From Obrimoposthia wandeli (lineage: Eukaryota), in the NCBI GenBank assembly GCA_977020255.1, contig CDROCS010002559.1:248001-312000 (forward strand): DNA of 64,000 nucleotides. The letters are read 5' to 3'. Below the pieces are notes generated by a model, which saw only the letters and a program-made list of their open reading frames with translations, ran no database searches and was not told where the DNA came from. A program made the translations under genes and the position numbers. Within the stretch, counting starts at the first letter, position 1; each line of letters starts with the position of its first letter. Positions 25,594 to 50,544 of the stretch are shown here, piece after piece.

Positions 25594-25605
25594 ATATGTA
25601 AAATA

Positions 25606-26758: not shown

Positions 26759-27510
26759 ACCTCATGAGGTCATGACCCCCCCTATGCTCAGGAAAAATGT
26801 CTTTGTCTTGAAAGACACACATACAGTAGGGGGATGTAAGTCTTTCAGGACAAATACATTTTGAGCATACCCCCCTTGAGCACAGTTTAAGGTCACGATG
26901 AGGACATGTCCTCATGAGGTCAACTTAAGGTCACGGTGAGGACAAGATGTAGGTCATGACCTCATGAGGTCAAGTCAAGTTAAGGTCATGACGTCATGAG
27001 GACAATGTACTTTAAGGTCAAGTTAAGGTCATGACGTCATGAGGACAATGTCATTTAAGGTCACGCTGAGGTCATAAGATGACTCATCGATGACTCATAT
27101 TCTATTTTTAGTAACATTCTTTAAAATTATATATCTTTTTATCTAAAGGTGGTATTAACACCAATTCAATAAAATACATATCGTGTGTGTGTGTGTTTTC
27201 TAATTTATTTAAATTAAATTATCTACTTATAAAATAAAGTATTATATAATTTGATAAATTTATTTAAACTAAATTCAATTAAATTAAACTATCTACTTAT
27301 AAAATAAAGTATTATATAATTTGATAATCATGTTTAAACGTTCCTGCATCTATCTAACAAAGATAGTCACGAACTGCATCTATATTGCAAATACTTGCAT
27401 CTTTATGTAATCAATAGTAACAAGTATTACATTTATTCTTATACAAGCATGTATATATATGTGTGAGTGTCTAACAAAGACAGTTACGTACTGCATCTAT
27501 ATTGCAATGT
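26759..27510. repeat. Polinton left TIR (outer ~150 bp missing)
   Basis: Reverse complement of ~44965-45728; rich in TCATGA and TGACGTCA palindromes. Confidence 0.9.
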
Positions 27511-27512
27511 AA

Positions 27513-27935
27513 TTACAAAGTTTTTGGTCGGTTAACTAAAAAGTTTAGTTTTTTACCAAGATAGGCACTAGGATCCTTTTCAAATACTTTTGTAAGTTTA
27601 TCTAATTTTACAAAAATATCAAGCATACCATCCCCTTTTTGTATACCATCTCCTTTTTGCAATCCATTCCCATTTTGTATACCTCTCATGTAATCCACAT
27701 TCTTTTTGTGCTTTATAGCTTTTTTATCAACTCCTCCAAACCATCTACCTAAAAGATTTGCTGCCATCATATGAATACCCAAACCCTCCATGATTTTCTT
27801 TTTACTCATAGTCTTTTTAACCTTAGTCTTTTTCGACTTTAATGATTTAGTAGGTTTTTTAGTCATTTTCATAATAAATATTAAAGTATCACTATTGTTT
27901 ATATATATAAAATGAAATAATACAAATAAAGACAC
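27513..27935 (-). CDS. Basic Polinton protein with repeated QxGxG motifs (candidate virion core protein)
   Basis: Lys-rich N-terminus; QNGNG, QKGDG, QKGDG. Confidence 0.5.
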   Translation of the reverse strand: MSLFVLFHFIYINNSDTLIFIMKMTKKPTKSLKSKKTKVKKTMSKKKIMEGLGIHMMAANLLGRWFGGVDKKAIKHKKNVDYMRGIQNGNGLQKGDGIQKGDGMLDIFVKLDKLTKVFEKDPSAYLGKKLNFLVNRPKTL

Positions 27936-27944
27936 AAAAATTAA

Positions 27945-28334
27945 TTAGTCAACTCTAACAGCATCAATTATTTTCCATATCGGAGTTTCCAATCCACTGG
28001 GTCCGATCTTGCATCCTTGAATTCTGATTGAGAGAATCCATTCTAGTTTAGGAGGAGGTACTTCGTATATTGTTCCATTCTCATGCTTGAAAGTGGCATT
28101 CGATCCTTTGATTACAAATTTGTTTTCCTGAAGCGTATAGTTGATTCCGAATTGAGTCAAGATAATATTGATTCTCTCTTTATCCACAGAAGTCAAATTT
28201 GATATTTCAAAATCAAATTTAAGCGGCTCGATGTTGACGGGAAAAATAAAATTATAGTTATGAGCTTTCTTCAAAAAGTGCATCTCATATCCATAATATG
28301 TATGCATAGGTTGATATAGCTTTTCAAAATTCAT
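27945..28334 (-). CDS. Polinton hypothetical protein (possible OB-fold ssDNA-binding protein)
   Basis: Intact 129-aa ORF with a beta-rich C-terminus (ILSIRIQG...PIWKI); functional call is weak. Confidence 0.45.
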   Translation of the reverse strand: MNFEKLYQPMHTYYGYEMHFLKKAHNYNFIFPVNIEPLKFDFEISNLTSVDKERINIILTQFGINYTLQENKFVIKGSNATFKHENGTIYEVPPPKLEWILSIRIQGCKIGPSGLETPIWKIIDAVRVD

Positions 28335-28407
28335 ATTGACAATTATAAATTGAAATATTCAATTGTTTATCCTCTAAAGCTCCCTTCTAATTGGTCGATA
28401 TTCTTGT

Positions 28408-28635
28408 TTATGAAAATCGTTTAGTATTAGTCATATCCTTAAAGGGCTCACGTTCTTCGGTTACGCGCGTAGGACTTGTTATTGTTTGACTTGATAGATT
28501 AATATTTTCTCCCTGATTATTTCTATTATAATTCATATTATAATATAAATTACTACCGGAACCTATATATGTACTAGCTCTACTTTCAATATTTTCATTA
28601 TTTTGATTATCCATTTTCAATAAAATCATTATCAA
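28408..28635 (-). CDS. Small Asn/Ser-rich Polinton ORF
   Basis: 75-aa ORF divergent from the IAP gene; probably frameshifted at its 3' end. Confidence 0.35.
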   Translation of the reverse strand: MIMILLKMDNQNNENIESRASTYIGSGSNLYYNMNYNRNNQGENINLSSQTITSPTRVTEEREPFKDMTNTKRFS

Positions 28636-28767
28636 AATATTGTTTATACTGTTTTATTCTTAAGACAAAGACATCACATGACTATTCTTGTAAAAACCAA
28701 GAATGTGGTCTAAAAATAGATTTTCACTTACTATATAAGCTAGTTAATTTCATCATTTAATTTTGTT

Positions 28768-29769
28768 ATGACTACTAAATTTATTGCATATTATGTTTCA
28801 GAAAACGGAGAACCCACCATTAGACGACGGCGTTTTGATAAGATTTCAAGAATAAATGAAAATATGATATATGAAGAAAGAAGATTAGAATCGTTACAAG
28901 CAAAGTTTACTGGTTTAGCCAATAATAGAGCTTTAGCAAAAGCAGGATTTTACAAGCACGATGATTCGAAAGATAATGTAAAGTTTATTTACTGTCACGG
29001 AGAAATATCGGGATGGGAGTACTATCTGAAACCAATGAAGCGGCATCAGCTATTTTTCCCAAGATGCCCGTTTGTTTTGAAAATGAATGTTTCAAACGTA
29101 CCAATAATTGATTCCAGCACCGCACAAATTGATTTTGATTCAACTCCAATGGATAAAGTAGTTATTGTACTCAATAATAATTCTAATGATATTGAAATAC
29201 CTACATTATCGATTTTCGATCATGTATATATTTGGAATGATTCTTATCGATGTTGTTTCTGTCAGAAAGTAGTACCCCGGCTTGAGTTTATTGATACTAT
29301 GCCCGAAAGAATCTTTCATACTCGATATTGTAAAGCATCTAGTATGGGAATCAAGAACGGATGTATTGTTGAATATCATATTAGTAATGATGAAATTTAT
29401 GCTCAAATGGAAACTCGTCAAATAGTTTTGCTGAAACGTGATTACAGTCATGATAGAATCAAAGCCGTTTTAGTTAATAGGTTTAAAACATTCGGTAACA
29501 AATATGATTCTATATATGAGTTTATAACGGATTTAAGATCTTTAGAAATAAAATCTGAACCAAAACATCGTATAAATTATCTCGAGTACCTCTTACCAAA
29601 TCCCGAATGTGTTGTTTGCATGAGCGATGCGATTTCCGCGGCATTTTTACCATGCGGTCACTTAAACACGTGTATTAAATATTCAGATCGTTTTATTACA
29701 TGTCCATATTGCAAGACAATTATCATTAGAAGAGTAAGAAATATTAGAGTTCATAGCATAGGCAATTAA
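28768..29769 (+). CDS. Inhibitor of apoptosis (BIR plus RING)
   Basis: RRLES...LAKAGFY...VKFIYC...W...P...H....PRCPF (BIR); second degenerate CCFC...H...C; C-terminal CVVC...FLPCGH..TC...CPYC (RING). Confidence 0.88.
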   Translation: MTTKFIAYYVSENGEPTIRRRRFDKISRINENMIYEERRLESLQAKFTGLANNRALAKAGFYKHDDSKDNVKFIYCHGEISGWEYYLKPMKRHQLFFPRCPFVLKMNVSNVPIIDSSTAQIDFDSTPMDKVVIVLNNNSNDIEIPTLSIFDHVYIWNDSYRCCFCQKVVPRLEFIDTMPERIFHTRYCKASSMGIKNGCIVEYHISNDEIYAQMETRQIVLLKRDYSHDRIKAVLVNRFKTFGNKYDSIYEFITDLRSLEIKSEPKHRINYLEYLLPNPECVVCMSDAISAAFLPCGHLNTCIKYSDRFITCPYCKTIIIRRVRNIRVHSIGN

Positions 29770-29841
29770 ACAAAGACATGCAATCTAAATATAAATGTTC
29801 AAATAGTATAAATAGAAGAAATTAGTTTATAATAATCAGAA

Positions 29842-30365
29842 ATGCTACTTCACAATATCAAATTAGTGAATATTAATTACAAGGGAATGGTTGTAAGTAA
29901 CATTCAACACTTACCATTTAGGACTTCGAAGCCTCATCAGTATCGACTCAAGTGGGAAGGTTACACTATTATCATTTTCAAATCTGGTAATTTATTTTTA
30001 CATTTATATATAATTATAATTTAGGGACATGCAGAATAATGGGTTGCACAACAGTGCTGGATGAAAGCAGTCTTCCTTTTGATATAAAAATCGAAAGAAT
30101 CCAATCAATCAGTCTCAGCAGCAATCTAGAAACATCAATAAACCTAAACAAGATGAGCAAGTGTATGGGTTCGGAAGCTGTTTACGAGCCAGAAATCTTC
30201 CCGGGACTTCGATACGTCAAATACAATCCCCTATGCGTGAACATTTTTGCGAGCGGAAAGATTATGATACTTGGTGTTAAATCTTTAAATTATGAGTATC
30301 TGATTGAATGTATTTTGTTTAATATAGATCTTCACACTTGTGTTATTTATTTATTTATTTCCTAA
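29842..30365 (+). CDS. TATA-box binding protein-like, spliced (intron 29987-30024)
   Basis: Repeat 1 TIIIFKSG|TCRIMG is restored by a 38-nt GT-AG intron; repeat 2 YEPEIFPGLRY...NIFASGKIMILGVKS matches the TBP signature. Confidence 0.85.
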
Positions 30366-30515
30366 ACAAAGACAACCAAATAGTCGTAATGTTGCTAAAA
30401 ATAGATTTCTCTTAGAGACAAAGACATCACATGTCATTACTTGCAAATAGTATTAATGTTGTCTAAAATAGAATTTTCTGGGTTATAAACGATATTTGAT
30501 TTGCTTTATCATAAA

Positions 30516-30759
30516 ATGGATGAAATTATTGAATGTAAAGAGGTTCAGCATGCATTAAATGATCTTGGCTCAGTTATTCTCAATGCTTAAATTAGGAAAA
30601 ATAATCACGAGTAATATTTATATGTAGTTTATTTAACTCTTTAGGTTACGTCATCAAATACATTTACATGAGATGTTAAGTACAATGGAAAGGTTGAATA
30701 ATACTCCAATCACATCATATGATGAAACTGATGCTCCAATGAAATCAAACCTCGTTTAG
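30516..30759 (+). pseudogene. Small Polinton ORF with a putative 34-nt intron (30611-30644)
   Basis: ATG after a repeated promoter-like motif; phase-2 GT-AG splice keeps the frame; one internal stop. Confidence 0.35.
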
Positions 30760-30792
30760 TATATAAGAGTAAATTGACTCTGAATTGATAAA

Positions 30793-31140
30793 ATGGAGAA
30801 AATCACATCAGCAACATCATCACTACCAGCAGCAACATCATCAGCAACATCATCACTGGCAACATCATCGCCAGCAACATCATCAGTAACATCATCACTG
30901 GCAGCAACAACAACAGTTATAAGAAGAGAAGAAACTATTGATGAAGTGATGATAGAAGAAGAAATTATTATAGATCCAATTATTGAAGATAAGAGACGGA
31001 TAGATTTTTTAAATGCTTTGGCTTTTATGGAACCCATAATAGCTCATGCTTCCAATATGGAAATGAACCATATGACCCATCTTTTTGATAGTTTGTTTAG
31101 TGCTAGATTTACTCAACATAATGTAGAAAAATTAAACTAA
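30793..31140 (+). CDS. Ser/Thr/Ala-rich low-complexity then acidic protein
   Basis: 115-aa ORF in the operon-like plus-strand run; built from GCAACATCATCA repeats. Confidence 0.5.
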   Translation: MEKITSATSSLPAATSSATSSLATSSPATSSVTSSLAATTTVIRREETIDEVMIEEEIIIDPIIEDKRRIDFLNALAFMEPIIAHASNMEMNHMTHLFDSLFSARFTQHNVEKLN

Positions 31141-31145
31141 CCGCG

Positions 31146-31562
31146 ATGAGTGAGATTTTAGTAAATCAATTATATATTGGTAATTATAGAGATGGGTTTG
31201 ATGAAACTAATCTGTTGAACTCCAATTTCACTCATGTAATCAATACATCTATACTGGATAAAATATCTTATAAGAAATTAAAATATACTTCTGTCTTTGT
31301 AAACTCAAAATTAGGAGAAACAATAATGAAGTATTATAAACAGACTAATAATATAATTAAAGAAACTATCGAAAATGGTGATAAGATTTTAGTATGTGGT
31401 CATTATGGTAGTTTACATGCTGCTTGTATTGTTATTGCATATTTATCTCATTCGATGGGTGTTACTGCTGCTTCCAATCTTGTTAAATCTAAACGGACTA
31501 TTGCTGCTCCTAATGAAGCTATGCTTCATCAAATACGTATTTTTAATCATTATCATGTGTAA
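31146..31562 (+). CDS. Dual-specificity phosphatase fold, catalytically degenerate
   Basis: LYIGNY...FTHVIN...KILV...CIVIAYL...VKSKR...PNE...QI. The P-loop reads VCGHYGSLH in place of VHCxxGxSR. Confidence 0.82.
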   Translation: MSEILVNQLYIGNYRDGFDETNLLNSNFTHVINTSILDKISYKKLKYTSVFVNSKLGETIMKYYKQTNNIIKETIENGDKILVCGHYGSLHAACIVIAYLSHSMGVTAASNLVKSKRTIAAPNEAMLHQIRIFNHYHV

Positions 31563-31582
31563 ATTTTATTCGTCTTTATCTT

Positions 31583-31699
31583 TAATCAGTGTTTTTATTA
31601 ATCAGTATCTTTATTAGTTAGTGTCTTTATTAGTCAGTGTCTTTATTAGTCAGTGTCTTTATTAGTTAGTGTCTTTATTAGTCAGTGTATTTATTAACC
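31583..31699. repeat. 16-bp tandem repeat, ~7 copies
   Basis: Unit TCTTTATTAGTCAGTG. Confidence 0.85.
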
Positions 31700-31755
31700 A
31701 ATCAGATTTCAGATGTATAGTATATAAGCAGATTACTTTTTACTGCTTCTTCATT

Positions 31756-32049
31756 ATGTCCACTCCAAATCATTTCAAGCAAGATGTTGACAAGGCGGTG
31801 AAGAGCTTCATCTCGAAGAATGTCATAGAAGAAGATGTCCTGAAACTCATTGATGTCTCAAATCTACCCCTGGAAGAACACGTAAGAAGAATGGTGCATA
31901 TAATTGATGACAAGGCAGTCAATCTTCTCATTCTGGGATACAATCAGAAGAAAGAACGTGCAAAGAAAGAAGAGAAAAGGAGCTTTTTCTACGAAAAGAG
32001 TTTTTTATTGTTTGTTGCTGGATGTATAATAATAAAATATTTTAAATAG
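31756..32049 (+). CDS. Small protein with a C-terminal hydrophobic tail anchor
   Basis: Likely ATG at 31756 downstream of a TATA box; ends KSFLLFVAGCIIIKYFK. Confidence 0.55.
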   Translation: MSTPNHFKQDVDKAVKSFISKNVIEEDVLKLIDVSNLPLEEHVRRMVHIIDDKAVNLLILGYNQKKERAKKEEKRSFFYEKSFLLFVAGCIIIKYFK

Positions 32050-32092
32050 TTTTGTCTTATAAACATTATCCCGATAATCTAATATTTTTAAT

Positions 32093-32743
32093 ATGAACTT
32101 TAAAAATAATTCAGTTTTTCAGATTGTAGGTCCTAGTGGTAGTGGGAAAACACATTTTGTATGTAAATTACTGCAAAATAATAAATACTTTACCTTTAAG
32201 TTTAATAAGATATACTGGCATCAGGGAGGAGATGGAGAAGCTGGTTTAACCAGTAAAGAGTTTAAGAAAATCAAAAATATAAAAGTCATTAATGGATTCG
32301 ATGATAATTGGTCTGAGCGATTACAACGACATGATGTTATTGTTATTGATGATTTATATCAAGAAGCAAATAAAGAGAGTGATTTCAATAATTTATTCAC
32401 TAAAATAGCACGACATCGGGAAGTAACTGTTGATTTCATCACACAAAATCTATTTCATTAAGGAGGGAACCATAGAACTCATAATTTAAATGTACATTAC
32501 CTTGTTCTCTTCAAGAATCCACGTGATCAGACGGTTGTTGATTTTGTTTCAAGACAAGCTTATCCAAATAATAGAAAGTTCCTAATTGATTCATTTCAAG
32601 ATGCAACTACTATTCCTCATGGATACATTTTTATTGATTTTACTCAAGATTGTCCCGATGACTTTAGAGTTAGAACTGATGTATTCAATCCATCAGGAAT
32701 TACCGTCTATAAACAAACAAAGAAACCAGTTTCTCGAAGATGA
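32093..32743 (+). pseudogene. A32/FtsK-like packaging ATPase
   Basis: GPSGSGKT, VIVIDDL, ARHR...ITQNLF, FKNPRD, HGYIFID. One in-frame stop at 32459-32461. Confidence 0.92.
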
Positions 32744-33129
32744 ATTTTAAAAAGGAAACTGTTAAACCCGAAGTTAAAAAATTGATTAAATCAGTTTTAA
32801 GTGCAAGGAAAATGGTTGCTCAAAAATCCAATAAGAAAAGAACTGTTGTTAAAAAATCTAGGAGTATTGCCTATTTCAATTCTCTCATGCGTGCACCTGC
32901 TATTCGCCGCCTAGCTATTCTTAAATCATTCCCTACTTTTGTAATTGATGATTTACTTAATATGATACAGAAAATAGTTTCTGGTAAAATAATTGTCAAG
33001 GCTAATATGAATCGGCATAAGAAACCTCTACTTGCTTTGTTTCACGCCAAAACACGGATCGGTAAACGTAAGTTGCTTTATAAGCAAAGTGGTGGATTTT
33101 TAGGATTTCTCGTACCAATTATTAGCTGA
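32740..33129 (+). CDS. Conserved basic Polinton protein (QSGGFL type)
   Basis: Basic ORF ending RKLLYKQSGGFLGFLVPII, located between ATPase and integrase. Confidence 0.6.
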   Translation: MNFKKETVKPEVKKLIKSVLSARKMVAQKSNKKRTVVKKSRSIAYFNSLMRAPAIRRLAILKSFPTFVIDDLLNMIQKIVSGKIIVKANMNRHKKPLLALFHAKTRIGKRKLLYKQSGGFLGFLVPIIS

Positions 33130-33265
33130 ATAGTTGGTGCACTTGCTAGTAGACAAATAAAACGATGATTATAAACATAAATTCGATTCAAAAATATGAA
33201 TTTATATATGGGATCACTTCCATCTATTCCTAAATTCAATATAAAAATCAAATCGTCTTGCTGTA

Positions 33266-34293
33266 ATGGAGAAAATATGGTTCGATCCAAGTCACCCCGT
33301 TGGTTACACAGGGGTTTCAAAATTAGCAAAAGAGTCAAAGAAGACAAAAAGGAAACTCAGGCGTGGTTGAGAAATCAATTAGCTTACAGCTTAAACAAAC
33401 CAATGAGACGTCGGTTCCCGACGAGATCATATAAAACGAGCGGCCCGAATGATTTATGGCAAGCAGATTTGATGGAAATGATTCCGTATGCAAGTATTAA
33501 CTACGGACATCGATATATTTTAACTTGTATTGATGTCTTTAGCAGATTCGCGCGAGCTATTCCATTAAAGTCTAAGTCTGGTATCGATGTTTTTGCCGCA
33601 AGGAAGCTTTTGATTAAAGAAATTAAACCAAGAAATTTCCAAACAGACAATGGAAAGGAGTTTTATAATAGACATGTTGGAACACTATTGAAAAAACATA
33701 ATATTAATCATTACTCAGTATTTTCCCAATATAAAGCTGCCCTAGTTGAACGTTTTAATCAAACATTGAGAGATCGATTGAAAAATTATTTCACAAAGCA
33801 GGGAAATAAGTCATGGGTCACTGTTTTACCTCAAATAATACATGCATACAATCATAGTGAACACTCATCATTAGACCGGAAAAGACCCGTTGATGTTACA
33901 GATGAGAGTGCTATGAAAATTTGGCAACGTTGTAACCAAAGTCAAGTTGTAAAGAAACCCAAGTATAAAGTTGGTGATTATGTACGTATTTCTCAAATTA
34001 GTACTACTCCTTTTATAAAGAATTTCAAAGAGAATTGGAGCGATGAAGTATTTCGTATAACTAAAATTGATAATAAACGTGTGCCGGTAATGTATTTCAT
34101 TGAGGATGAAACCAATAATGTAATCACGGGTAAATTTTATCATGAGGAATTACAAGTCTTGCCTGAGAAACCAAATGTATATAGAATCCAAGAAATTTTA
34201 GAGACAAAAGGTAGAGGAAAGCATAAACAATATCATGTTAAGTGGCATGGATATACTGAACCTAGTTGGATATTAGCTTCTCAAATAGAATGA
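33266..34293 (+). CDS. Polinton retroviral-like integrase with chromodomain
   Basis: MEKIWFDPSHPVGYTG (frameshift) ... WQADL, CIDVFSRF, QTDNGKEF, VERFNQTL, YHVKWHGY..PSW. Confidence 0.92.
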
Positions 34294-35328
34294 ACTCAAT
34301 GTATGTTGTATTACCAAGTAATGGTTCGCCATTAACTCAGCCGAATAATACTGCTAATAGTTTTAGTATTGATTATCAAAGCTCAATCAATTTACCCGGT
34401 GCTTGGGAAGCTGCTCTTACGGAAATTTCTTTCAATTACTCTCCTCTATCTATTCAAAGTGAAACTGAGATTGAATATATTACCAAACAAGAAGCTGATA
34501 AAGTAACTGATGTGACTTTACTATTTGATAAGGGTCAAATGGATTTGGCTCGTATTAAGTCAGGCGATGATTTCACAATCTATTTAAATAAAGAGAATCG
34601 AATTCAAATTATGGGAAAAGGGGATAATTTTGAAATAGTTTTTAATGATGAAATTGTTGCAGAACAATATGGATTTCCGTCTAACGTTGAAAAAGGTAAG
34701 CATGCAGTTTCGGGAATTATGGATAATCATGTCAAGTATCCGATAATTACATTCAAGATAAAAAACAGATTCACTAAACGCGAGAGGAAAATATATTCAG
34801 TTCCCAATGATTTTCTTTTTCCCGATAGCGAAAGCATGTGTAAACATTTTAAAACAGTGTTACCAAATGTATTTGAAAACTTTAAACTAGTTAATAAATT
34901 GATTCATTTCAAATTTAAATCAAATATTGTTAAAGTTGTGATGGATAAATCATTAGCCTCAATTATCGGTTTTGATGAAAATGAATTTGAAAATAAAAAT
35001 GAGGTTTTAAAAAAAAAAAAAAAAAAAAGCAAAGATTATTCCTAAAATGACTAATGCATATAATCAGATTTATATCTACACGAGTATTACCGAACAAATA
35101 TTCGTAGGAGGAAGGAAACTTCCCTTAATTAAAGCAATTTGGGTTCAACAGGAAAAGCACAAGTATGGTGATGTTATACATATTCCAATTGAAAATCCAA
35201 TGTATATTCCCGTGAGTTCTTCTTCTATAAACAATATTGAAGTTAATATACGTAATGATTCTGGAAGATTAATTACATTTGCTTACGGAGCTAAAACAAG
35301 TTTAACGGTTCATTTTCGTAAATTATGA
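34290..35328 (+). pseudogene. Minor capsid protein (penton, PX), frameshifted at a poly-A tract
   Basis: YVVLPSN...NNTANSF...LPGAWEAALTEI; C-terminal IYIYTSI...VGG...PMYIPV...IEVNIRNDSG...VHFRK. Confidence 0.85.
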
Positions 35329-35687
35329 TTGATTCAAGTATAATCGATGCGTATAGTAAACCGATGCAAGGAGGTGATTTACCTTATTTTGCGGGAAAAC
35401 AGTATGGATCAGGATGGCTGAAGGTTTTTGGTCGCTTTGCTTTCCCACTACTCAAGCGACTCGGGAAATTTATTCCTAATGTTGGATAAAAATACTTGTC
35501 TGGTGATGGGAAATTTCTTCCCACACTAAAGAATGTAGCCTTGGATCAGGTGAATGAAATTTCACCAAGTCTAGCTGAATTTTTGAAAAAGAAAACTCAA
35601 AAGGGAAGTGGTTATAAACGTAAGAAAACATCTAAAGCATCGGGTATAAACAAACGTTTGAAACTAGGTGGAACAATTTTTAAGTAA
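35325..35687 (+). pseudogene. PZ-like basic core protein
   Basis: QGG, QYGSG...FGRFAFPLLKRLG, QKGSG; one stop; ATGA/TAATG overlaps with penton and MCP. Confidence 0.6.
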
Positions 35688-36730
35688 TGAGTTGTGCTAA
35701 AACTGAATTGTGTATATTCGATAAACCTATACCTCAGGTTGTGGCTGATAGTGCTAGTTTTGAAGAAATATTTCCGACAAATACGGTTAACGGTACATCT
35801 TCTCCGGATTTAGAATTCAATATTAATGGATCCAATACTCAATATCTTGATTTGAATGATAGTTTATTTCTCGTTAAATTGAAAGTTACAAAGGAAGGAG
35901 GAGGTGATTTGGATGATGATTTGGATATCAAATCAGCTAATTACATGTTGCATACTCTTTTCAAGGATGTGATTCTCAGTCTCAATAATGTGAAAGTTGA
36001 GGGAAATAATACTAGTTACACCCATAAAGCAATGATTGAAACATTACTGAATTACGGTAATGATACGAAATTGATTAATCTTGATGCAATTGGGTTTGAT
36101 GATGATGAAAAAAGAAGAACAGCTTCGATTGCGAAATCTAAAGTATTGTCACTTTGTGGGAGTCTCCATTTGGATTTCTTTAAGCAACCAAAGTATATTT
36201 TACCCGGTGTAAGTACACATATTCGAATGAAGAGAAATCCAGTAGGTTTTAGTGTTGTTTGCGCCGATACTATTAAAACCGCAATTGAGATTACGGAAGC
36301 AAAACTGTTGGTTCGAAGAGTAAAGGTGGAACCATCTGTACTTGTTGCACATCGAATAGGGTTGGAGAAGCAAAATGCATGTTATCCTATTAGAAAAACT
36401 AATCTTGTTTCTTACGCTATCCCTACGGGGGCTCTATCTTATTACAAGGATCAGATTTTTGGTGATATGCAACTTCCAAACTTTGTTTTAATTGCTTTTC
36501 AAAAAACCTCTACCTATGGATGTGAGTCTAAAAATGAGGTTTCTCAATTTGAATACACGAATGTGAGTTCAATTAAACTTGCACGAAATATTGATTATCA
36601 AGAATCTTATACGAATGACTTTGAAATTAATGATTATGTATTTTCTTATGTGCAATCTTTAATTAGAAATCTTGGTCATTTGGATAAGGATGCTAATATT
36701 GGAATTTCAATGACTGATTTCAAGGATAAG

Positions 36731-39116
36731 TGTTGAGAATGAGAAATTTTGGGTTAATTGTGATTGTTTTGTGGGGGAATTAATTGATTGTTTCCCTTAA
36801 TTAGAGGGCGATTAAAGTAATTAGGGGAATGCACTTTGGCATTTGGTGGTTGGTTTGGCTGATTCAGTCCCCGACCGGCTTAACCGGTTTCGCCCTGCCG
36901 GGCTCGTCAGGGAGACGGCAGATTTATCTCTGGCTTCGCGGTGGGCAAAATGCCCGCGAAGTCAGAGATAAAAGAGATAAAGGACATGAAGTAAAAAGAG
37001 CGAATAAAACACAGGACACGTACCTGTTAAAGTCACCCAAATTCCTCGCTCAGCAACAACATATGCCAGCAGATCCGACTGATGTCGAATTCAACTGGCA
37101 ATATATCTCTCTCCCTCTGTGTTCAGACCGCTACTGGGTCTTTTTCAATCAGCCCAATCTCTCTGTGGTAACGGTGGGTGATTCTGGAGGGCCACTTGTC
37201 TCCCTGGCCTTATCTGATACTGTCACTTGTCAAGGCGCCGGTGGTCTTCTACGTTTTTGTGAGCGCAGTCTGTGGCGCTGTTTGGGCGGAGGGATGGATC
37301 CAGTTGTCGACGGCCGCTGCCATTGGTCTTTGGCCAGTGACAATCTCTCTCCCTCTGTGTCCAATCCGCTACTGGCAACGTCTCTCGTTTTTCTCTGTCT
37401 CGAGACTACCAGCGTGAATTGGTTGCCTGATCCTGATTGATTTTTGTATTTCTGCTGCACATATAACCCCAGTGCAAAATGAACTACATTTAATTTATTT
37501 TTCATTGACACAATTTCCTGTATAAAAATTCTCTCAAAGGACAAATATAACAATATTTTATTGTAACAAATACTTGATTCAGAAAAAGAGTTCGATTAAA
37601 AGTATTTATTTTTTCATTTATTTAATTTGATTATTAAAAATATTTTATTGAATCAGAAAATATTTGATAAGTATTCAATTACCTTTTACAAATAATTATT
37701 CACATTTTCAACTGATTATTGATTAGTAAAGTGACTTTTGTCATTCGGTAAATTAAATTTATTTTGATATTGAATATCATCGCTATCTTTAATTTTGAAG
37801 TAAAATTTTATTTATCAAAATTTATTTATAACAATTGTATTTTAATTATTTGATATTTTGAATATTAGCATTTTTATTGTATTTTCTAGTCAAAGAACAA
37901 ATATAACAATATTTTATTGTAACAAATACTTGATTCAAAAAAAGAGTTCGATTAAAAGTATTTATTTTTCATTTGTTTGATTTGATTATTAAAAATATTT
38001 TATTGAATCAGAAAATATTTGATAAGTATTCAATTACCTTTTACAAATAATTATTCACATTTTCAACTGATTATTGATTAGTAAAGTGACTTTTGTCATT
38101 CGGTAAATTAAATTTATTTTGATATTGAATATCATCGCTATCTTTAATTTTGAAGTAAAATTTTATTTATCAAAATTTATTTATAACAATTGTATTTTAA
38201 TTATTTGATATTTTGAATATTAGCATTTTTATTGTATTTTCTAGTCAAAGAACAAATATAACAATATTTTATTGTAACAAATACTTGATTCAAAAAAAGA
38301 GTTCGATTAAAAGTATTTATTTTTCATTTGTTTGATTTGATTATTAAAAATATTTTATTGAATCAGAAAATATTTGATAAGTATTCAATTACCTTTTACA
38401 AATAATTATTCACATTTTCAACTGATTATTGATTAGTAAAGTGACTTTTGTCATTCGGTAAATTAAATTTATTTTGATATTGAATATCATCGCTATCTTT
38501 AATTTTGAAGTAAAATTTTATTTATCAAAATTTATTTATAACAATTGTATTTTAATTATTTGATATTTTGAATATTAGCATTTTTATTGTATTTTCTAGT
38601 CAAAGAACAAATATAACAATATTTTATTGTAACAAATACTTGATTCAAAAAAAGAGTTCGATTAAAAGTATTTATTTTTCATTTGTTTGATTTGATTATT
38701 AAAAATATTTTATTGAATCAGAAAATATTTGATAAGTATTCAATTACCTTTTACAAATAATTATTCACATTTACAACTGATTATTGATTAGTAAAGTGAC
38801 TTTTGTCATTCGGTAAATTAATTTTATTTTGATATTGAATATCATCGCTATCTTTAATTTTGGAGTAAAATTTTATTTATCAAAATTTATTTATAACAAT
38901 TGTATTTTAATTATTTGATATTTTGAATATTAGCATTTTTGTTGTATTTTCTAGTAAAACATTGTTGATTAATTTTGATTTGAAAAATTATTCACATTGT
39001 GCTCGTGCTACTTTATTTTAATTAAATTTTTTAATGACCAAATTTCAATTATTAAAATTGAATTAAAATTTACCTGAAAATACTATTGCATAAATAATAT
39101 ATTATCTAATATAACA
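36731..39116 (+). mobile_element. Solo LTR, 2386 bp
   Basis: TGTT...AACA termini, 4-bp TSD TAAG (36727-36730, 39117-39120). Confidence 0.9.
37535..38955. repeat. ~355-bp tandem repeat, 4 copies, inside the solo LTR
   Basis: CAAATATAACAATATTTTATTG recurs at 37542, 37898, 38253 and 38608. Confidence 0.95.
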
Positions 39117-39335
39117 TAAGTATACACTGTTCACATTTGTTCTCTCTCCTGATTTCGATATTAGTCAAGCTCAAATCCCTAAACAGGGAAATTTGAAAGT
39201 AGAAATCAAGTTTTCAAAAGCACTTGAACATCCTACTAATATTATAATCTATGGAGTACTCGATTCTGAGGTTCAAATTACCAAGGGAGGAACAGTACTA
39301 GTATAAACAGAATGAAAACAATAAAGAAGATATAA

Positions 39336-39686
39336 ATGAAGTAAGTCAGTTTGAATTTATTAATTAATATATATTCTAGTTCGGACGAGATAACAAAAAG
39401 CGGAAGAAAACTACTCGGTTCGCGTTTCAATGGAGTCTACAGTCTTGATCACATGCCCTCTTTGACTCGTTTAGATGGATATGTAATCAATACATATTCA
39501 TCTAATTTGCGTGGTAAACATTGGATTGCAATACATGTTAAAGAAAATGAAATCTTTGTTTTTGACCCCTTTGGGATATATTACCCTTCTAAATTAGTAT
39601 CTACAGTACTTGATTCTGGAAAGAAAGTACATTTTAGTAAGAAACATTATCAAAATGTTTTAACACAGTCATGTGGACAGTACTAG
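39336..39686 (+). pseudogene. Adenain-like cysteine protease, copy 1 (3'-truncated; intron 39341-39379)
   Basis: ATG AA|intron|T TCG gives MNSDEI; HWIAI, FDPFG, QSCGQ then stop at the duplication junction. Confidence 0.85.
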
Positions 39687-39720
39687 TATAAACAGAATGA
39701 CAACAATAAAGAAGATATAA

Positions 39721-40098
39721 ATGAAGTAAGTCAGTTTGAATTTATTAATTAATATATATTCTAGTTCGGACGAGATATCAAAAAGCGGAAGAAAACTACT
39801 CGGTTCGCGTTTCAATGGAGTCTACAGTCTTGATCACATGCCCTCTTTGACTCGTTTAGATGGATATGTAATCAATACATATTCATCTAATTTGCGTGGT
39901 GAACATTGGATTGCAATACATGTTAAAGAAAATGAAATCTTTGTTTTTGACCTCTTTGGGATATATTACCCTTCTAAATTAGTATCTACAGTACTTGATT
40001 CTGGAAAGAAAGTACATTTTAGTAAGAAACATTATCAAAATGTTTTAACACAGTCATGTGGACAACTCTATCTGCTTTGGTTAAAGCATAAACAATAG
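39721..40098 (+). CDS. Adenain-like cysteine protease, copy 2 (intron 39726-39764)
   Basis: Same structure offset by 385 bp; catalytic His, Asp and Gln/Cys present (HWIAI, FDLFG, QNVLTQSCGQ). Confidence 0.88.
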
Positions 40099-40135
40099 AT
40101 ATAAACAATATCAAATAAAATTATTGCTATAAAAA

Positions 40136-40676
40136 ATGTCTGTTTATTTTATTGATTTTGAAGCTTTTATTGATAATAATACTGAATTTGTAATAAAAGA
40201 ACTATGTATAATGGATGTGGATGTATAATAATACTGAATTTGTAATAAAAGAACTATGTATAATGGATGTGGATGCAATCTTCTATCCTAAACATTATGT
40301 TTTTAAAATGCAACCTATATGGGACATGATGAATAGAAAATCAAGAAAAATAAATAGATATCTCATTAAGCATTACTATCGACTAAAACTAGTTGATGGT
40401 AATAGTTTTTTCAAGATACAAGAAATAACTGAGGAAATAAAACGTTGTTGTGATGTATCCAAATCAATTTTCTATGTTTTGGATGAAAATAATGGAGCTA
40501 AAATAAAGACAATCAATAAATATTTTCCTGAATTTAGCTCGATAAATTACTCGAAAACATTAAAACAATTAAAACCATCAAATATCAATTGTCCATATAT
40601 TAAACATGGAGAGCATTGTGCATACAAGAAATGCTTTGCAGCTAGTTTAGATTATTTAAATATTAATGAAAAATAA
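40136..40676 (+). pseudogene. DEDD-like nuclease-family Polinton protein, frameshifted by a 52-bp duplication
   Basis: YFIDFEAF...FVIKELC...HYVFK; duplication 40173-40224/40225-40276. Removing one copy restores the frame. Confidence 0.6.
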
Positions 40677-40828
40677 ACTACTCACATCTTTCAGTAAACT
40701 ATTCTGATTAAAATGAATCTGATTAGTTTAAATAATAAATGAATCTGATTGTCTTAATACTAGCTCGAAAATAGTATATAAGCAAGCATCAATCAACAAA
40801 TAACTCTATATTATAAACGAAATTTAAA

Positions 40829-43800
40829 ATGGTAAGTTTCTTGTTATTTCTATATTTATTATATTTCTAGAATTGCAATATGAATAAACGACTATGCTTC
40901 GAGGAGAGTCACAAGGAATGTGACGGAAAAATGAAGAGCTACTTTGGACAGAAGTTCAATGGACAACAATTCTACGTATGTCCAGTATGTCTCTCCGCGG
41001 AGGAGATTGATTGGGTAGAGTTTGTGGCGCGTCATCGTGTCCATCTTCGCCATTTCCAGCAACGTGGCAAGAAGGCCATCTTTCAGAATAGATCTGCTTC
41101 TCCTGCTACTATTTCTCAAGTTCCGGTTGCTGCACCAGTTAGTGCTCCAGTATCTACTCCAATTGCTGCTGTTCAAGTTGCTGCACCAATTACTTCTCCA
41201 ATTGCTGCCCCAATTGCTTCTCCATCATCTGCTGCACCAATTACTATGGTTCAAGTTATGCCTCCTCCAGTTAGTATGATCCCCGCGCCGTTACCAGCAT
41301 ATACCCACAAGAGAAGTGTTATGCCCACTTCAGGTAGCTCTGTTGCGAAGTTTCCCAGGGTTGATGGTGTTAAGCGTAAGACTAGTCTTCGGGGCACGAT
41401 TGAGACATTGTCACTAGATGTTTCTAATGACAATGTCATCGATTTACAAGTTCCTGTATCACTTTTGACTAGCTTAAGGGACACAGTCAGCAAGTTTGCG
41501 ACTTGCAAGGTTCAATTCGGGGTGCGTGTTGAATTTTCCAATATTGGAGAAACACGCGCTTGGAATTTTTCCAATAGAGGGCTCCCCATAGATGAGGGGT
41601 TTATAGATGCGGGAGTAGATGGAATCAACAATAAGATTGAGAATTATTCTCAAAGTAGCAGTAATTGGGTAGTGAACCGCTTCCTGGAGATTTCGTTTGT
41701 TGTGACTAAAACAACAACAATGAACTATCTCCAGGGAAGTAGTTATATACCTACTCCATCTGAGTTAGCACTCTCACATTGCGTTATCAATGTGCAGAAC
41801 TCTAACACTTTTTGCTTCCTTTACAGTATCTTATCTGTACTTTTCCGCGAAGTATTTCGCTCTAATCCTCATCGGGTTAATCAATATGATGCCCTTTTGA
41901 GTCAATTAGTTTTTGATGAGAATGAGATGCCGATGCGTCTATGTAATATACCGCGATTTGGGAGAAAGAATCCATCTCTCTCAATCAACGTATTTACATT
42001 CAATAGGTTCTCTAATGTGCAAACAGATAGGGATATCTCCAAAGATCCCTATGTGGATGTCATATACAGGATCACAAACCCATACGCTAAGCCAATCAAT
42101 CTTCTCCTTTTAGAAAATAATGATAATTTTCATTATGTCGGTATTCCTAAACTCAATAGGCTGCTTAATTATAGGAACAAAGGTGTATCTAATTGCATTC
42201 AGTGTACTTGGTGCCATAAGTGTCTTCATTGGTTCCAGAAAGCAATAAGTTACGCCAAACACGTTCCGCTCTGTAGGATGAATTTAGATCATACAACACT
42301 TTATTCAATGCCTACAGAGAAGCATATTGAGTTTAAGGACTTTTCGAAAACGATTTCTCCGCCTTTTGCTGTTTACGCGGACTTTGAGGCTGTGCTACCG
42401 CCGCATGGAATCCACCATCAGATTCAGCTTCCAATCTCGGCCGGTATGCTCATGTCTCCCGTTGCAGCCACGAGAGGGTACACACATGAATACTCGGTCT
42501 TTACCGGGGAATCTTGTGTGGTATCCTTTTTGCAGAAATTAGAGGACTTGGCGAAAGAGGTTGTACTCCCATGGTACAAAAAGCATGCGATCGAGGTGAT
42601 GCGACAACTCACACAGGAACAGGTATCGAGTTTCAATGCCGCAAGAATCTGTTACCTGTGTAAGAAGAAACTCACAAACAAAGTTCGAGATCGCGATCAC
42701 ATGATTGGCGAATACCTGGGAGCTGCACATCCAAATTGCAACTTATCAAGGAGACTCAATCGATCTTTTCCCGTCATATTTCATAATCTGATGGGTTATG
42801 ACATGCACCACATATTGAAACACGCACTGTGCAAGTTTCCTGATTGGAATGTCTCTGTTATACCTCAATCAACAGAGAAATTTCAGGCTATGATGGTGTA
42901 TATTGGAGGAGTCTGTATACGTTTCATCGATTCCCTTCAAATTTTGAACAGCAGCCTAGAAAAACTTGTGGAAAACCTGGGTGTGACTCCTCTAACACAT
43001 TCGGTCTTCCCGCAACATCTGGTGAGCGCCAAGGGAATTTTCCCATACGATATGGCAGTATCAGAGACTGCTCTTCGTGTAATCACCAGCTTACCGCCAA
43101 AGTGGGATGAGAAGATCAAGCCAGCACAATATGAAATGGCGAAGATGGTCTGGACTCAGAGCGGCTGCTCATCGCTCTGGGACTATATGCTGGTCTATAT
43201 GAAGATGGACGTCTACCTTAGACGTGTTTACAGCATTCCGGACCAAGGCCATTGCCGACGATGGATTGGAGCCACTCAATTTCTTCTCCATCCCTGGTTT
43301 GTATTTTACTAATTTTTAAACTTTCACCAAGTAATTTTTATTAAGTAACTTTTCACAAAGTAATGATTTTCACAATGATTTTCACAATGATTTTAATAAA
43401 TGTTTTTATTTCCAGGACTGACTTTTGCGAGTGCTTTTAAATCCCTGCTTCGCCTGAAATCTTCTGCTCCCGTTGTACGAGTCGAGCTAATACAGGATCC
43501 AGAAATGTACCGTCTTTTCCGGTTCGGGATTCGCAGGGGTATGACCTTTGTTAATGAACACCGCGTGGACGCCATCAATGGTACAGAACTTTTGTACATT
43601 GATGTAAATAATTTGTACGGGTGGGCTATGTCCCAGTTTTTACCTTGTGTTAACCTTTCCTGGGTGACTGATCGCTTAGAGTTGGGGAATATTATTTCCA
43701 GTATAAAATAAGCAGATTTATCCTGTAGTCGCTTCGCTTATTTATTGGAAATAGATTTATCCATTCCCAATGAGCTTCATAATAAATTCGACGATCTTCT

Positions 43801-44779
43801 CCTTGCTCCAATTAAACAGCGTCCACCAGGGTGTAAGACTGAAAAATTGTTATTAACACATTACCCTAAGAAACATTATGTTGTGCATTCTAGATTGCTA
43901 CAAATGTACATTAGACTTGGTGCTAAGGTAGATTTTGTATACAGAGCAATACAGTTTGAACAAACTAATATTTTTTCAAAATATATTGAGGATAATTCTC
44001 TCAAAAGAGCTGCGGCTACAACAGATTTCGAGCGGGATTACTACAAACTGAAGGTGAATTCTTTATTTGGAAAACTCATTGAGAATCTGATGAAAAGAAT
44101 AAACCTCCGGATTTGTAATACTCCACAGAAGCTGGTTACCTATTGCAGTAAAGCCCACTTTCGTAGGACAATCGAAATCGATACGGACCTTATTGCAGTT
44201 CTACTGGATAAGGAAAATATTGTTTTGGATCGTCCTAATTATATGGGCCAGGCAGTATTAGATTTAAGCAAACTTCGTATGTATGAGCTACAATATGAGC
44301 AGTTGGAGAAATATCGAGTTCAATTTAACTGCGACATTAGAATTATAGCGGGTGACACTGATAGCTTTTTCTTGAAGTGTAATAATGTAAATGTTCAAGA
44401 ATCACTGTTACCTGCTATGATTGCTGATGGACTGTTGGATAACTCGAAATTTCCAAAAACCCATCCGCTTTATACGACGCTTAATACAGCGATAGGAAAA
44501 TTTAAAGATGAGAGCAAGGGATTATTTAGCTATAGGCAAGGGATTTTTCTACGTCCAAAATCATATAGCCTAGAGACTACAGAAGGTGAATCTCAGATGA
44601 GAGCAAAAGGTATTAGTCTCCGGCAGACAAGTATTAGGCACTCTAATTACTTAGCCGTATATGAGAGTGGCGTTAGCGAGCGTGTACAACAACAACGTAT
44701 AAGCTCACTAAATCATCAACTTTTTACTATAAGGTTAAGTAAAATTGCCTTAAGCAGTAGCGATGATAAACGCAAGTGA
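40829..44779 (+). pseudogene. Protein-primed family B DNA polymerase with two introns (40832-40870, 43297-43415)
   Basis: YADFEA, DRDHMIG, FHNLMGYD, FIDS, KGIFPYD, YIDVNNLYGWAMSQFLP, KLKVNSLFGK, GDTDS, GKFKDE, RPKSY. Frameshift ~43220 and stop at 43709-43711. Confidence 0.95.
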
Positions 44780-44964
44780 GTGGAGAAAAACCGATCAGTT
44801 GCCTACGGTCACTTTTTATACCCGGATGAAGTTGTATAAACTTTTTATATGTGTTTGTATATATTTTTACTCTCCTTTGTGATTTTAAGGAATATATGTG
44901 TTAGAAATACATGTCTTTATTTTAAAATTATTGGTATTTACATAAATTTGCAGGTTTTTTGCAA

Positions 44965-45879
44965 TATATATGCAGTACGTGACTGTCTTTGTAGGTATTG
45001 ATTACTGTCTTGGTTAGACACACACACACGTGACTGTCTTAGTAGGTATTGATTACTGTCTTTGTTAGACATACACACACGTGACTGTCTTTGTTAGACA
45101 CTCACACACATATATACATGTATAAGAATAAATGTAGTACGTGACTTGTTACTATTGATTACATAAAGATGCAAGTATTTGCAAGATAGATGCAGTACGT
45201 GACTGTCTTTGTTAGATAGATACACGAACGTTTAAACATGATTATCAATATTTATAATACTTTATTTTATAAGTAGATAATTTAATTTAAATAAATTATA
45301 TAAGCTTGGACACACACACACGAGATGTCTTTTGGTGAAGACCGCGTGTTAATACCACCTTTAGATAAAAAGATATATAGATTTAAAGTATGTTACTAAA
45401 AATAGAATCTTTTTGACCTCACCGTGACCTTAAAGTACATTGTCCTCATGACGTCATGACCTTAAGTTGACCTTAAAGTACATTGTCCTCATGACGTCAT
45501 GACCTTAACTTGACTTGACCTCATGAGGTCATGACCTACATCTTGTCCTCACCGTGATCTTAAGTTGTCCTCATGAGGTCATGTCCTCATCGTGACCTTA
45601 AACTGTGCTCAAGGGGGGGTATGCTCAAAATGTCTTTGTCCTGAAGACGCACATCCCACTACTGTATGTGTGTCTCTCAGGACAAATACATTTTTCCTGA
45701 GCATAGGGGGGTCATGACCTTATGAGGTCATGACCTAGATTTTCCCATGACCTCATGAGGTCATGACCTACATATTGTCCTCACCGTGACCTTAACTTGA
45801 CCTAGATTTTTTGTCCTCAACTTGACCTGAACTTGTCCTCAGGGGGGGCTTTGTTCCAGAAGTGCTACATCTACCTACT
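44965..45879. repeat. Polinton right TIR (complete terminus)
   Basis: Pairs with 26759-27510, carries extra internal copies of a GTGACTGTCTT...GTTAGAC unit, and ends at 45879 where BEL integrase sequence resumes. Confidence 0.9.
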
Positions 45880-50541: not shown

Positions 50542-50544
50542 GTC

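Follow-up and report, generated by a model that had tools for sequence, protein, structure and literature searches.

It was found that a decayed Polinton/Maverick element of Obrimoposthia wandeli has, in its pPolB, protease, and TBP-like genes, short segments that look like genuine U2-type spliceosomal introns on sequence evidence. The element lies in the window, which is the whole 64,000-nucleotide stretch of DNA analysed here. It is probably a dead copy of an animal Polinton lineage that was transcribed in the nucleus by Pol II, and the minimal U2-type introns in the three genes would have been gained during the active phase of the lineage, not after the copy died. No well-described expression cycle is known for Polintons, and they may be either autonomous nuclear viruses or dependent on giant viruses for transcription. 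If pPolB and the capsid-maturation protease do have spliceosomal introns, replication and virion genes alike would be transcribed by host nuclear Pol II and then spliced in this lineage, which points to its reliance on the nuclear splicing machinery of the host.

The Polinton/Maverick element

Judged by its TIRs and its pPolB, integrase, ATPase, capsid, and protease genes, the locus is a decayed Polinton/Maverick of about 19 kb. Its ends and the genes other than those with intron-like segments are as follows.

26759..45879, unstranded: decayed Polinton/Maverick element, from TIRs and gene content; left end cut off, ~2.4-kb secondary insertion inside
26759..27507, unstranded: left TIR, outer part missing, adjoined by a gypsy-like element; 88-91% identity with the right TIR
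45079..45879, unstranded: right TIR, terminating in ..CTACCTACT, from the TIR comparison
28768..29769, strand +: IAP-like accessory gene (BIR + RING), no intron seen; PF00653 E=1.3e-10, PF13920 E=2.6e-9
31146..31562, strand +: dual-specificity phosphatase accessory gene; PF00782 E=3.4e-14
32093..32743, strand +: packaging-ATPase-like gene, stop at 32459; P-loop families, Pox_A32 E=1.6e-4
33266..34293, strand +: retroviral-like (rve) integrase, frame break near the 5′ end; PF00665 E=1.9e-12
34290..35328, strand +: candidate minor capsid gene, frame break at an A-run near 35010; no sequence-based identification
35687..39306, strand +: major capsid gene, interrupted by the insertion at about 36731-39126; Atlas features

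The minor capsid candidate, so labelled from its gene position, had no Pfam match and no usable Atlas match. The TIRs are ~750 nt in length, and the total span of 19.1 kb, including the 2.4-kb insertion, lies within the 15-25 kb given for Polintons/Mavericks in PMC6431247. The left end, next to which the 6-bp target-site duplication of a Polinton would be expected, is missing from the window. The typical genes are also present, namely the rve integrase, pPolB (PF03175 E=2.1e-7; 63 relatives, many with PF03175), a packaging ATPase, an adenovirus-type cysteine protease, and a DJR major capsid; the Pox_A32 match and the Peptidase_C5 match (E=0.003) are both under the curated cut-offs of Pfam. The major capsid has an Atlas feature score of 0.97 to major-capsid/DJR-like clusters (PF21738 in 14-16% of members), with a recognition value (2294) just under the reliable range. 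The named distant relatives of pPolB are arthropod proteins of about 29-37% identity. The element shares TIRs, pPolB, rve integrase, ATPase, adenovirus-type protease, DJR major capsid, and IAP with Polintons, Mavericks, and adintoviruses; IAP accessory genes are reported for the last group (PMC8502044).

The decay of the element is seen in frame breaks, tandem duplications (52 nt and 385 nt), repeat expansions, and further insertions. A non-standard genetic code was considered on account of an in-frame TAA in three element genes, and was rejected since, read with the standard code, both host and viral genes otherwise have frames that run open for hundreds of codons. The window also holds BEL/Pao-type (DUF1759), mariner, and gypsy elements, which together with the IAP gene point to an animal host.

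Intron-like segments and interrupted reading frames

The original prediction had placed six GT-AG segments in the element, and their coordinates and lengths proved to be exact. All six run from GT to AG and are 80-92% A+T; only 1 of the 2387 39-nt windows in the long exon of pPolB is as A+T-rich. The GT donor, YAG acceptor, and U/A-rich body of a U2-type intron are present, and the reading frame is collinear across the TBP-like, pPolB-internal, and protease segments. Restoration of a conserved frame had been claimed throughout; it is shown for the first two of these three and well supported for the protease. The features of the TBP-like gene and of a nearby small ORF (30516-30759) are listed below.

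29842..29986, strand +: TBP-like exon 1 (48 codons + 1 nt); 7 full-length relatives align to it over their N-terminal third
29987..30024, strand +: putative TBP-like intron, 38 nt, phase 1, GT-AG, 92% A+T, in IFKS-X-TCRIMG; 8/8 relatives contiguous
30025..30365, strand +: TBP-like exon 2; PF00352 E=1.1e-12, fold match of the modelled relative P0098
30611..30644, strand +: intron-like segment of the small ORF, 34 nt, GT-AG; in-frame TAA in exon 1

With the 38-nt segment omitted, the flanks align without a gap with all eight relatives, with one residue at the junction. The family consists of divergent proteins of 119-165 aa that are 41-55% identical to the gene of the element and ~25% identical to cellular TBPs. 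The sequence profile scores only one TBP repeat, and the two-repeat TBP saddle fold was found via the model of the relative P0098 (pLDDT 92.5), whose top PDB matches are all TBPs (E~1e-8; TM 0.6-0.7 over ~170 columns). In the small ORF, exon 1 has an in-frame TAA and the conserved frame stays a prediction; this intron is unproven and is to be discounted. Another splice-like segment, 29806-29839, was judged not to be an intron because it overlaps the TATA box of the TBP-like gene.

The pPolB gene has two such segments.

40829..40831, strand +: pPolB exon 1, the start codon alone, from sequence
40832..40870, strand +: likely pPolB intron 1, 39 nt, phase 0, GT-AG, GTAAGT donor, in-frame stop, directly after the ATG, from sequence
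40871..43296, strand +: pPolB exon 2, frame break near 43220; PF03175 E=2.1e-7
43297..43415, strand +: putative pPolB intron 2, 119 nt, phase 1, GT-AG, in SIP-X-LTF, from the alignment of relatives
43416..44815, strand +: pPolB exon 3, stops at 43709 and 44777, from sequence and relatives

When the 119-nt segment is omitted, the flanks are contiguous with 26 of the 27 close relatives, as read by eye from the alignment context; P0023 ends before the site. An automatic test gave 20/27, since in six the best match of the short right-hand peptide lay at another place. About 73 nt of this segment are short tandem repeats, and it has no second copy in the window. No other intron-sized insertion present only in the window copy was seen in pPolB; the other genes, screened by frame continuity only, are mostly without an intron. 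For the segment at the start codon, the predicted frame restoration stands only in part: exon 2 has an in-frame ATG after 9 nt, and hence a reading frame exists without splicing. In three close relatives, however, an N-terminal Cys is aligned ahead of this exon 2 Met, and the start-codon intron is likely.

The protease gene is present in two copies.

39336..39686, strand +: protease copy 1, a shortened duplicate, with a 5-nt first coding exon (39336-39340); Peptidase_C5 E=0.0028
39341..39379, strand +: putative intron of copy 1, 39 nt, phase 2, GT-AG, GTAAGT donor, from sequence
39721..40098, strand +: protease copy 2, with a 5-nt first coding exon (39721-39725); 958 relatives at E<=0.001
39726..39764, strand +: putative intron of copy 2, 39 nt, phase 2, GT-AG; same site inferred in P0106, P0107, P0112, and P0114

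As predicted, the putative intron is found in both copies, but these are a tandem duplication (382/386 nt identical) and thus one local event, not independent cases.

Could such segments arise by chance? A segment of fixed length with GT..AG ends within a 2-nt slide is available at 1.4-1.6% of the element positions, and the joint chance for the two homology-anchored segments (TBP-like and pPolB-internal) is about 2e-4. Splice-like segments of 33-45 nt on the coding strand number 6 against 1.31 +/- 1.22 in local shuffles, a count reached in 1 of 300. Both copies of the protease and a further, unlikely candidate are counted here, under criteria set post hoc; with an earlier acceptor pattern, which was faulty, there were 3 against 1.1, as in 24/200 shuffles. 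The pattern ATG-N(0-2)-GTAAGT occurs four times on both strands of the window, three of them at the protease and pPolB gene starts. The copy does have frame breaks, duplications, and repeat expansions, and the small-ORF case is without homology support, as would be expected of fortuitous A+T-rich insertions or assembly errors with GT..AG ends in a decayed element. However, given the joint chance, the independent start-codon cases of protease and pPolB, and the signal in relatives, this explanation is very improbable.

Relatives and the age of the putative introns

The prediction called for comparing intron positions with relatives. Compared as proteins, the protease site is apparently shared; none of the relatives seen has the TBP-like or the pPolB-internal intron. 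The contiguous relatives may stem from genes without introns or from spliced transcripts. Intron positions in protease relatives were deduced from protein sequences, not DNA. Among the nine closest, four appear to read through an intron at the same site, with implied lengths of 37, 37, 40, and 47 nt. The N-terminus test covered the best 150 of 958 matches, 40 of which have a surely anchored N-terminal extension of at least 10 aa, and the criteria were a Ser at the acceptor position, an extension rich in F/L/I/Y/N, and a fitting donor. Four of the 40 fit (ranks 1, 2, 7, and 9) and none of the other 36. P0106 and P0112 fit the full ATG-NN-GTAAG/GTATG pattern (9/500 and 4/500 shuffles), while the donor test is uninformative for P0107 and P0114, where 500/500 shuffles also fit.

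Since four of the nine closest relatives apparently share the site, the protease intron is probably older than this element copy, and its apparent presence in relatives of only 44-49% identity favours an old, inherited intron. A one-clade origin gained no support from the tree (40 rows, namely the window and 39 of the top 40 matches, with the 957-aa P0139 left out), which does not unite the read-through proteins. The trait requires 2 changes on this tree, as few as in 113/500 shuffles, and the bootstrap is not settled; the support of the window's group is 91/84, unstarred. The protease intron may be ancestral to part of the family, and the TBP-like and pPolB-internal introns may be later, lineage-specific gains.

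Alternatively, a host introner, MITE, or other intron-gain process may have struck the integrated copy. In PMC11957031, ~90% of the tested viral element-introner pairs of dinoflagellates fit secondary insertion; the present copy has taken other insertions, and two of its introns are in none of the relatives seen. On the other hand, the introns share no sequence with each other or with host introns beyond composition (p<0.05 in 2/45 pairs), no junction shows a duplication longer than 2 nt, the window holds no additional copy of them, and the protease site seems common to distant relatives. Nor would insertions into a dead copy favour start codons. Mutual similarity, target duplications, and many copies, by which introners are recognised, were thus not found within the window, although old introners would lose similarity, and an introner origin is unsupported. 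Overall, insertion after integration is unlikely. Group I/II self-splicing introns were rejected, as Rfam at the gathering threshold gave no match in 26700-46000 and the lengths are far too short.

Probable nuclear expression, host introns, and known systems

A TATA box lies 28-45 nt upstream of the ATG in 13 of 18 element genes, as opposed to 13 of 699 background ATGs. Nuclear Pol II expression, as originally suggested, is therefore indicated. The 39-nt protease intron follows the first five coding bases, with the usual spacing between TATA box and ATG; pPolB has no box in the -45..-28 range, with boxes at -54 and -17. Host RNA polymerase II would transcribe the element genes in the nucleus from these TATA promoters, and the segments would then be removed by splicing. 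Unspliced RNA would give no protease or TBP-like protein because of stops or frame shifts inside the introns, so that expression, including that of the virion-maturation gene, would need the host spliceosome. The most likely benefit of the introns may be a general effect of introns near promoters, which increase Pol II output and export and give the RNA a host-like look. Splice-junction reads would prove transcription, free of confusion with genomic DNA.

The size comparison with the host rests on five introns.

15703..15739, strand -: host intron, 37 nt, by frame continuity
15461..15497, strand -: host intron, 37 nt, by frame continuity
14435..14478, strand -: host intron, 44 nt, by frame continuity
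56563..56604, strand +: host intron, 42 nt, FDF-domain gene, by frame continuity
56796..56832, strand +: host intron, 37 nt, same FDF-domain gene, by frame continuity

These account for five of the six lengths reported before (37, 37, 37, 42, and 44), and the 39-nt one was not pinned down. Homology lends thin support to the host exons, with an FDF domain (E=0.0012) in a single exon. A host AAA-ATPase exon used as a query gave 34 matches among 6964 candidates, none of them above 37% identity. Long adaptation to the spliceosome of this host, as had been proposed, does not follow from five host introns with one viral intron at 119 nt. Nor does a host-specific fit, since a 37-47-nt class is implied for the relatives as well and minimal introns would also be retained in a viral genome of limited size; the intron size may be the minimum of the host or of the viral genome. 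It is conceivable, if somewhat doubtful, that the introns are real and inherited but near-neutral, tolerated through nuclear transcription and short because Polinton genomes are compact. The few host introns measured, the drift of one viral intron to 119 nt through tandem repeats, the 37-47 nt implied by protease relatives, the lack of an intron in most element genes, and the many contiguous relatives agree with this. However, neutral gains need not fall directly at a start codon with a perfect GTAAGT donor, as two of five introns do, and need not persist, while the protease site was apparently kept over ~50% protein divergence. This alternative conflicts only with the adaptive part of the favoured explanation, in which introns were gained in an active, nuclear-transcribed lineage.

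Introns are ordinary in DNA transposons and nuclear DNA viruses in general, and what the finding changes is the view of Polintons and not that of splicing. Nuclear-transcribed DNA viruses with spliced family-B polymerase mRNAs are exemplified by the adenovirus E2B and the chlorovirus polymerase genes; in adenovirus, a tiny upstream exon supplies the first few codons of Pol and pTP. Adenovirus has a few transcription units with alternative splicing over long distances, whereas the element has one TATA promoter per gene, has minimal introns, and integrates. As a tentative joint reading, there may be an animal Polinton clade with a splice-gated, adenovirus-like nuclear programme. The replicase and the virion-maturation protease would have their start codons on micro-exons and yield protein only after host splicing, and a virus-encoded TBP-like factor would drive one TATA promoter per gene. 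The 5′ introns would have been long kept as an expression boost or as a shield against host silencing of intronless foreign transcripts, and the clade would be recognised too rarely, as gene callers of the prokaryote style cut its proteins short or extend them wrongly.

Polinton core genes are usually described as intronless, as the prediction had it, for instance in PMC8097293 and bioRxiv 2022.07.12.499685; this described but not defining property does not hold here, where pPolB has two putative introns and the protease one. Nematode Mavericks (wasp/msft-1, krma) likewise have spliceosomal introns, but in host-derived cargo, while those here are in core viral genes and a divergent TBP-like gene. 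Dinoflagellate maverick-polinton-like proviruses also contain intron-forming sequence, as repeated introner copies, mostly post-integration and in protists (PMC11957031). In contrast, the introns here are unrelated, single-copy, and minimal, two at start codons and one apparently common to diverged relatives. Cryptophyte PLVs have introns as well, although these are self-splicing group I introns of 309-376 bp (PMC12220804). In the literature covered, mostly non-subscription articles, conserved spliceosomal introns were not found reported for core genes of animal Polintons.

As rare characters, such intron positions could serve to trace inheritance and host switches. In surveys, it is assumed that such elements 'do not contain introns' (PMC10120064), or only ORFs without introns count as intact (PMC8097293). 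Surveys of either kind would mis-annotate or discard intron-bearing Polinton families. Besides the four read-through proteins, three further top-10 protease matches begin at an internal Met, and the mis-called N-termini of the closest protease relatives look like an error of assuming intronless genes.

Structure and decay of the Polinton

The element carrying the intron-like segments was identified as a Polinton (Maverick) from its terminal inverted repeats and gene content, and every core feature that could be tested is present. The terminal inverted repeats are ~750 nt long and 88-91% identical to each other. The right end terminates in ..CTACCTACT. The left repeat lacks its outer part and is adjoined by a gypsy-like element; thus, the target-site duplication is unreadable. 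Pfam matches were obtained for pPolB, the family-B DNA polymerase (E=2.1e-7), an rve integrase (E=1.9e-12), a P-loop ATPase and, weakly, an adenovirus-type protease, as well as for the accessory IAP, TBP-like and dual-specificity phosphatase genes. A frame at 35687 resembles double-jelly-roll major capsids (feature score 0.97 in the protein-cluster resource Atlas, with a recognition value slightly below the reliable range). The copy is dead. Stops lie within the ATPase and pPolB genes, frame breaks are found in the integrase, pPolB and candidate minor capsid genes (the last has no confirming match), the capsid gene is split by a 2.4-kb insertion, and there are local duplications.

This insertion (36731-39126) combines a repeat of higher G+C content, which is related to 17103-17182, with a tandem array of four 355-nt units. 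An ORF at 40136-40676 is interrupted by a 52-nt tandem duplication and has no Pfam match; I take its start to be DEDD-exonuclease-like. A small ORF at 33208-33380 begins with MG, contains SSCC, overlaps the 5′ end of the integrase gene and has its own TATA box; I assume that it may encode a myristoylated virion protein.

The original prediction placed six GT-AG segments in the Polinton genes, and all of them were recovered at exactly the same positions.

26759-45879: Polinton/Maverick element
29987-30024: 38-nt segment, TBP-like gene
30611-30644: 34-nt segment, small ORF
39341-39379: 39-nt segment, protease gene, one copy
39726-39764: 39-nt segment, protease gene, other copy
40832-40870: 39-nt segment, pPolB (intron 1)
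43297-43415: 119-nt segment, pPolB (internal)

All six segments have GT..AG ends and are 80-92% A+T, a richness reached by only 1 of 2387 39-nt windows of the long pPolB exon. For a random fixed-length segment with GT..AG ends allowed within a 2-nt slide, such ends are expected by chance at 1.4-1.6% of positions, or ~2e-4 jointly for the TBP-like and pPolB-internal segments. The Rfam intron models gave no matches. Judged from the sequence, the presence of introns in Polinton genes is a real feature, and the predicted introns can be ranked as three strong, one likely and one unproven. The predicted restoration of conserved frames held for the TBP-like and pPolB-internal segments, whose relatives are collinear, and is well supported for the protease; pPolB intron 1 is likely, but a frame exists there without splicing. 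The small-ORF segment is intron-like but its intron is unproven, since exon 1 holds an in-frame stop.

Probable introns and the protein relatives

Eight TBP-like relatives (41-55% identity) were found among 12 candidates. All eight are uninterrupted across IFKS-X-TCRIMG with a single residue at the junction, and tblastn breaks them into two frames exactly at the 38-nt segment. No intron was found at this site in the eight, which are known as proteins only. The gene itself (29842-30365) is a member of a separate family of small proteins with the TBP fold, whose identity to cellular TBPs is only ~25%. The predicted structure of one relative, P0098, is a full two-repeat TBP saddle (pLDDT 92.5), and its top PDB matches are TBPs without exception. 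A TBP borne by a Polinton is of interest in its own right; for related midsize viruses, a TBP-like gene is named in a figure legend (PMC8502044).

The pPolB search gave 63 matches among 2631 candidates, 27 of which form a close group (35-53% identity). In 26 of these 27, exactly one residue separates the left flank of the internal site from the right flank; the remaining one, P0023, ends before the 119-nt site. An automatic count gave 20/27, with the short right peptide best-matched elsewhere in six. The internal intron was seen in none of the close relatives, again known as proteins only. About 73 nt of it are tandem repeats of 12 and 14 nt, which suggests that it expanded from a shorter intron. 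Intron 1 lies directly 3′ of the ATG and has a GTAAGT donor; this ATG-then-GTAAGT pattern occurs four times in the window (both strands), three of them at the pPolB and protease gene starts. An in-frame ATG also lies 9 nt into exon 2. The Cys ahead of the exon-2 Met is shared with the N-termini of the relatives P0002, P0003 and P0004, which would favour the upstream start.

The first coding exon of the protease gene is 5 nt long. Its ATG lies 34 nt 3′ of a TATA box, as in most other genes of the element. Without splicing, the frame meets a stop after two codons, and many relatives have two residues ahead of the exon-2 start point. The 39-nt segment claimed for both gene copies is present in each, but the copies arose by one 385-nt duplication (382/386 identical) and are not independent.

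The best 150 of 958 protease matches were examined, and in 40 of these an N-terminal extension of at least 10 residues is surely anchored. In four (P0106, P0107, P0112 and P0114; ranks 1, 2, 7 and 9; 44-49% identity), the F/L/I/Y/N-rich extension ends in Ser directly before the exon-2-equivalent residue and fits a GT donor; Ser is what translation of an AG acceptor and the next base would give. Of the remaining 36, none passes both tests. The full ATG-NN-GTAAG/GTATG pattern fits P0106 and P0112, versus 9 and 4 of 500 shuffles, respectively, while for P0107 and P0114 the fit rests on the start Met and is uninformative (500/500 shuffles fit). The implied intron lengths are 37, 37, 47 and 40 nt. 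Three further top-10 matches start at an internal Met, and P0109, P0111 and P0113 have short contiguous N-terminal starts. These N-termini apparently match what a splicing-ignorant gene caller would output for DNA whose intron occupies the same phase-2 position. The picture is less simple in a 40-row tree built from the exon-2 region: the window protease groups with two of the four read-through proteins and the three internal-Met proteins with support of only 91/84. The other two fall in an unresolved part, and the read-through label is no more clustered than in shuffles (113/500). Protein-level signs point to a protease intron common to diverged relatives. Since the TBP-like and pPolB-internal introns were seen in no relative, they may be younger gains, or the relatives may be transcripts.

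Size, novelty and possible expression of the introns

The Polinton introns measure 34, 38, 39, 39 and 119 nt. Host introns found by frame continuity (n=5) measure 37, 37, 37, 42 and 44 nt and are likewise A+T-rich with GT[A]..YAG ends; the genome of the host, probably an animal, is A+T-rich, at about 30% G+C. The claimed host-like size is real as a length match, with a host set of five and thin homology support (FDF, E=0.0012), and it would fit adaptation to this host and general compaction equally well. An origin from introners, mobile intron-forming sequences, found no support: p<0.05 was reached in 2 of 45 pairwise intron comparisons, no junction repeat exceeds 2 nt, and within the window no second copy of the 119-nt intron was found.

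The premise that Polinton genes are usually described as intronless agrees with three sources. Intact vertebrate Mavericks have no introns, agreeing with Kapitonov and Jurka 2006 (PMC8097293); nematode Maverick core genes are intronless, with introns in cargo genes (bioRxiv 2022.07.12.499685); and such endogenous viruses are stated to contain none (PMC10120064). Dinoflagellate maverick-polinton-like elements bear introners, ~90% consistent with post-integration insertion (PMC11957031), cryptophyte PLVs have group I introns (PMC12220804), and GT-AG boundaries were looked for in Oxyrrhis PLVs and none found (PMC12721341). Spliceosomal introns in Polinton core genes are unmentioned in keyword passages of PMC11296320, bioRxiv 2023.08.22.554363, PMC9004415, bioRxiv 2026.07.28.741278, PMC11244446, PMC5718144, PMC3671162 and PMC6431247. 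No prior report was found among the openly accessible papers searched. In contrast to the intronless core genes of published Polintons, the window element appears to have introns in pPolB and the protease gene.

A TATAAA/TATATAAG box lies 28-45 nt before the ATG (a range picked after inspection) in 13 of 18 genes; among the element's other ATGs, the figure is 13 of 699. The genes thus resemble individual Pol II units, each with a very short leader. After integration of the Polinton into the host genome, Pol II, perhaps with the aid of the viral TBP-like protein, would transcribe from the TATA promoters, and the host spliceosome would take out the minimal introns before translation. Without splicing, neither the protease nor the TBP-like protein would be made from the RNA. 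Promoter-proximal introns probably help expression, export or escape from silencing, which for the Polinton is a proposal. The first codons of the adenovirus polymerase likewise come from a tiny upstream exon.

A motif, ACAAAGAC, recurs 5′ of the IAP, TBP-like and small-ORF genes (28665, 29770, 30366, 30418), several times in the terminal inverted repeats and at 62578-62603. It presumably resembles a Sox/TCF-type site and may be an early-gene enhancer. The promoters at 31566-31730 and 40715-40790 have a CCAAT-like element and AGTATATAAGCA in common, and a 16-nt tandem array lies ahead of the former.

Other features of the window

A second Polinton-like left end (AGTAGGTAG...) at 62521-63000 is 82% identical over 39 nt to the right end of the main element. 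Similar TGACCTCA-type repeats come next, and no genes lie beyond them within the window. In a decayed gypsy-like LTR element at 18872-26300, the gag-like region and the reverse transcriptase are, unusually, separated by a Monjiviricetes-type fusion glycoprotein domain (E=1.8e-18). A host AAA-ATPase gene on the minus strand (7579-8244 and 11074-11424) has exons unusually G+C-rich for this genome (54% in the frame at 11074-11424), and its best matches are only 29-37% identical. The region is flanked by mobile-element remnants at 45795-51800 and 61944-62633, one of BEL/Pao type (DUF1759, integrase zinc domain) and one of a DUF4371 transposase.
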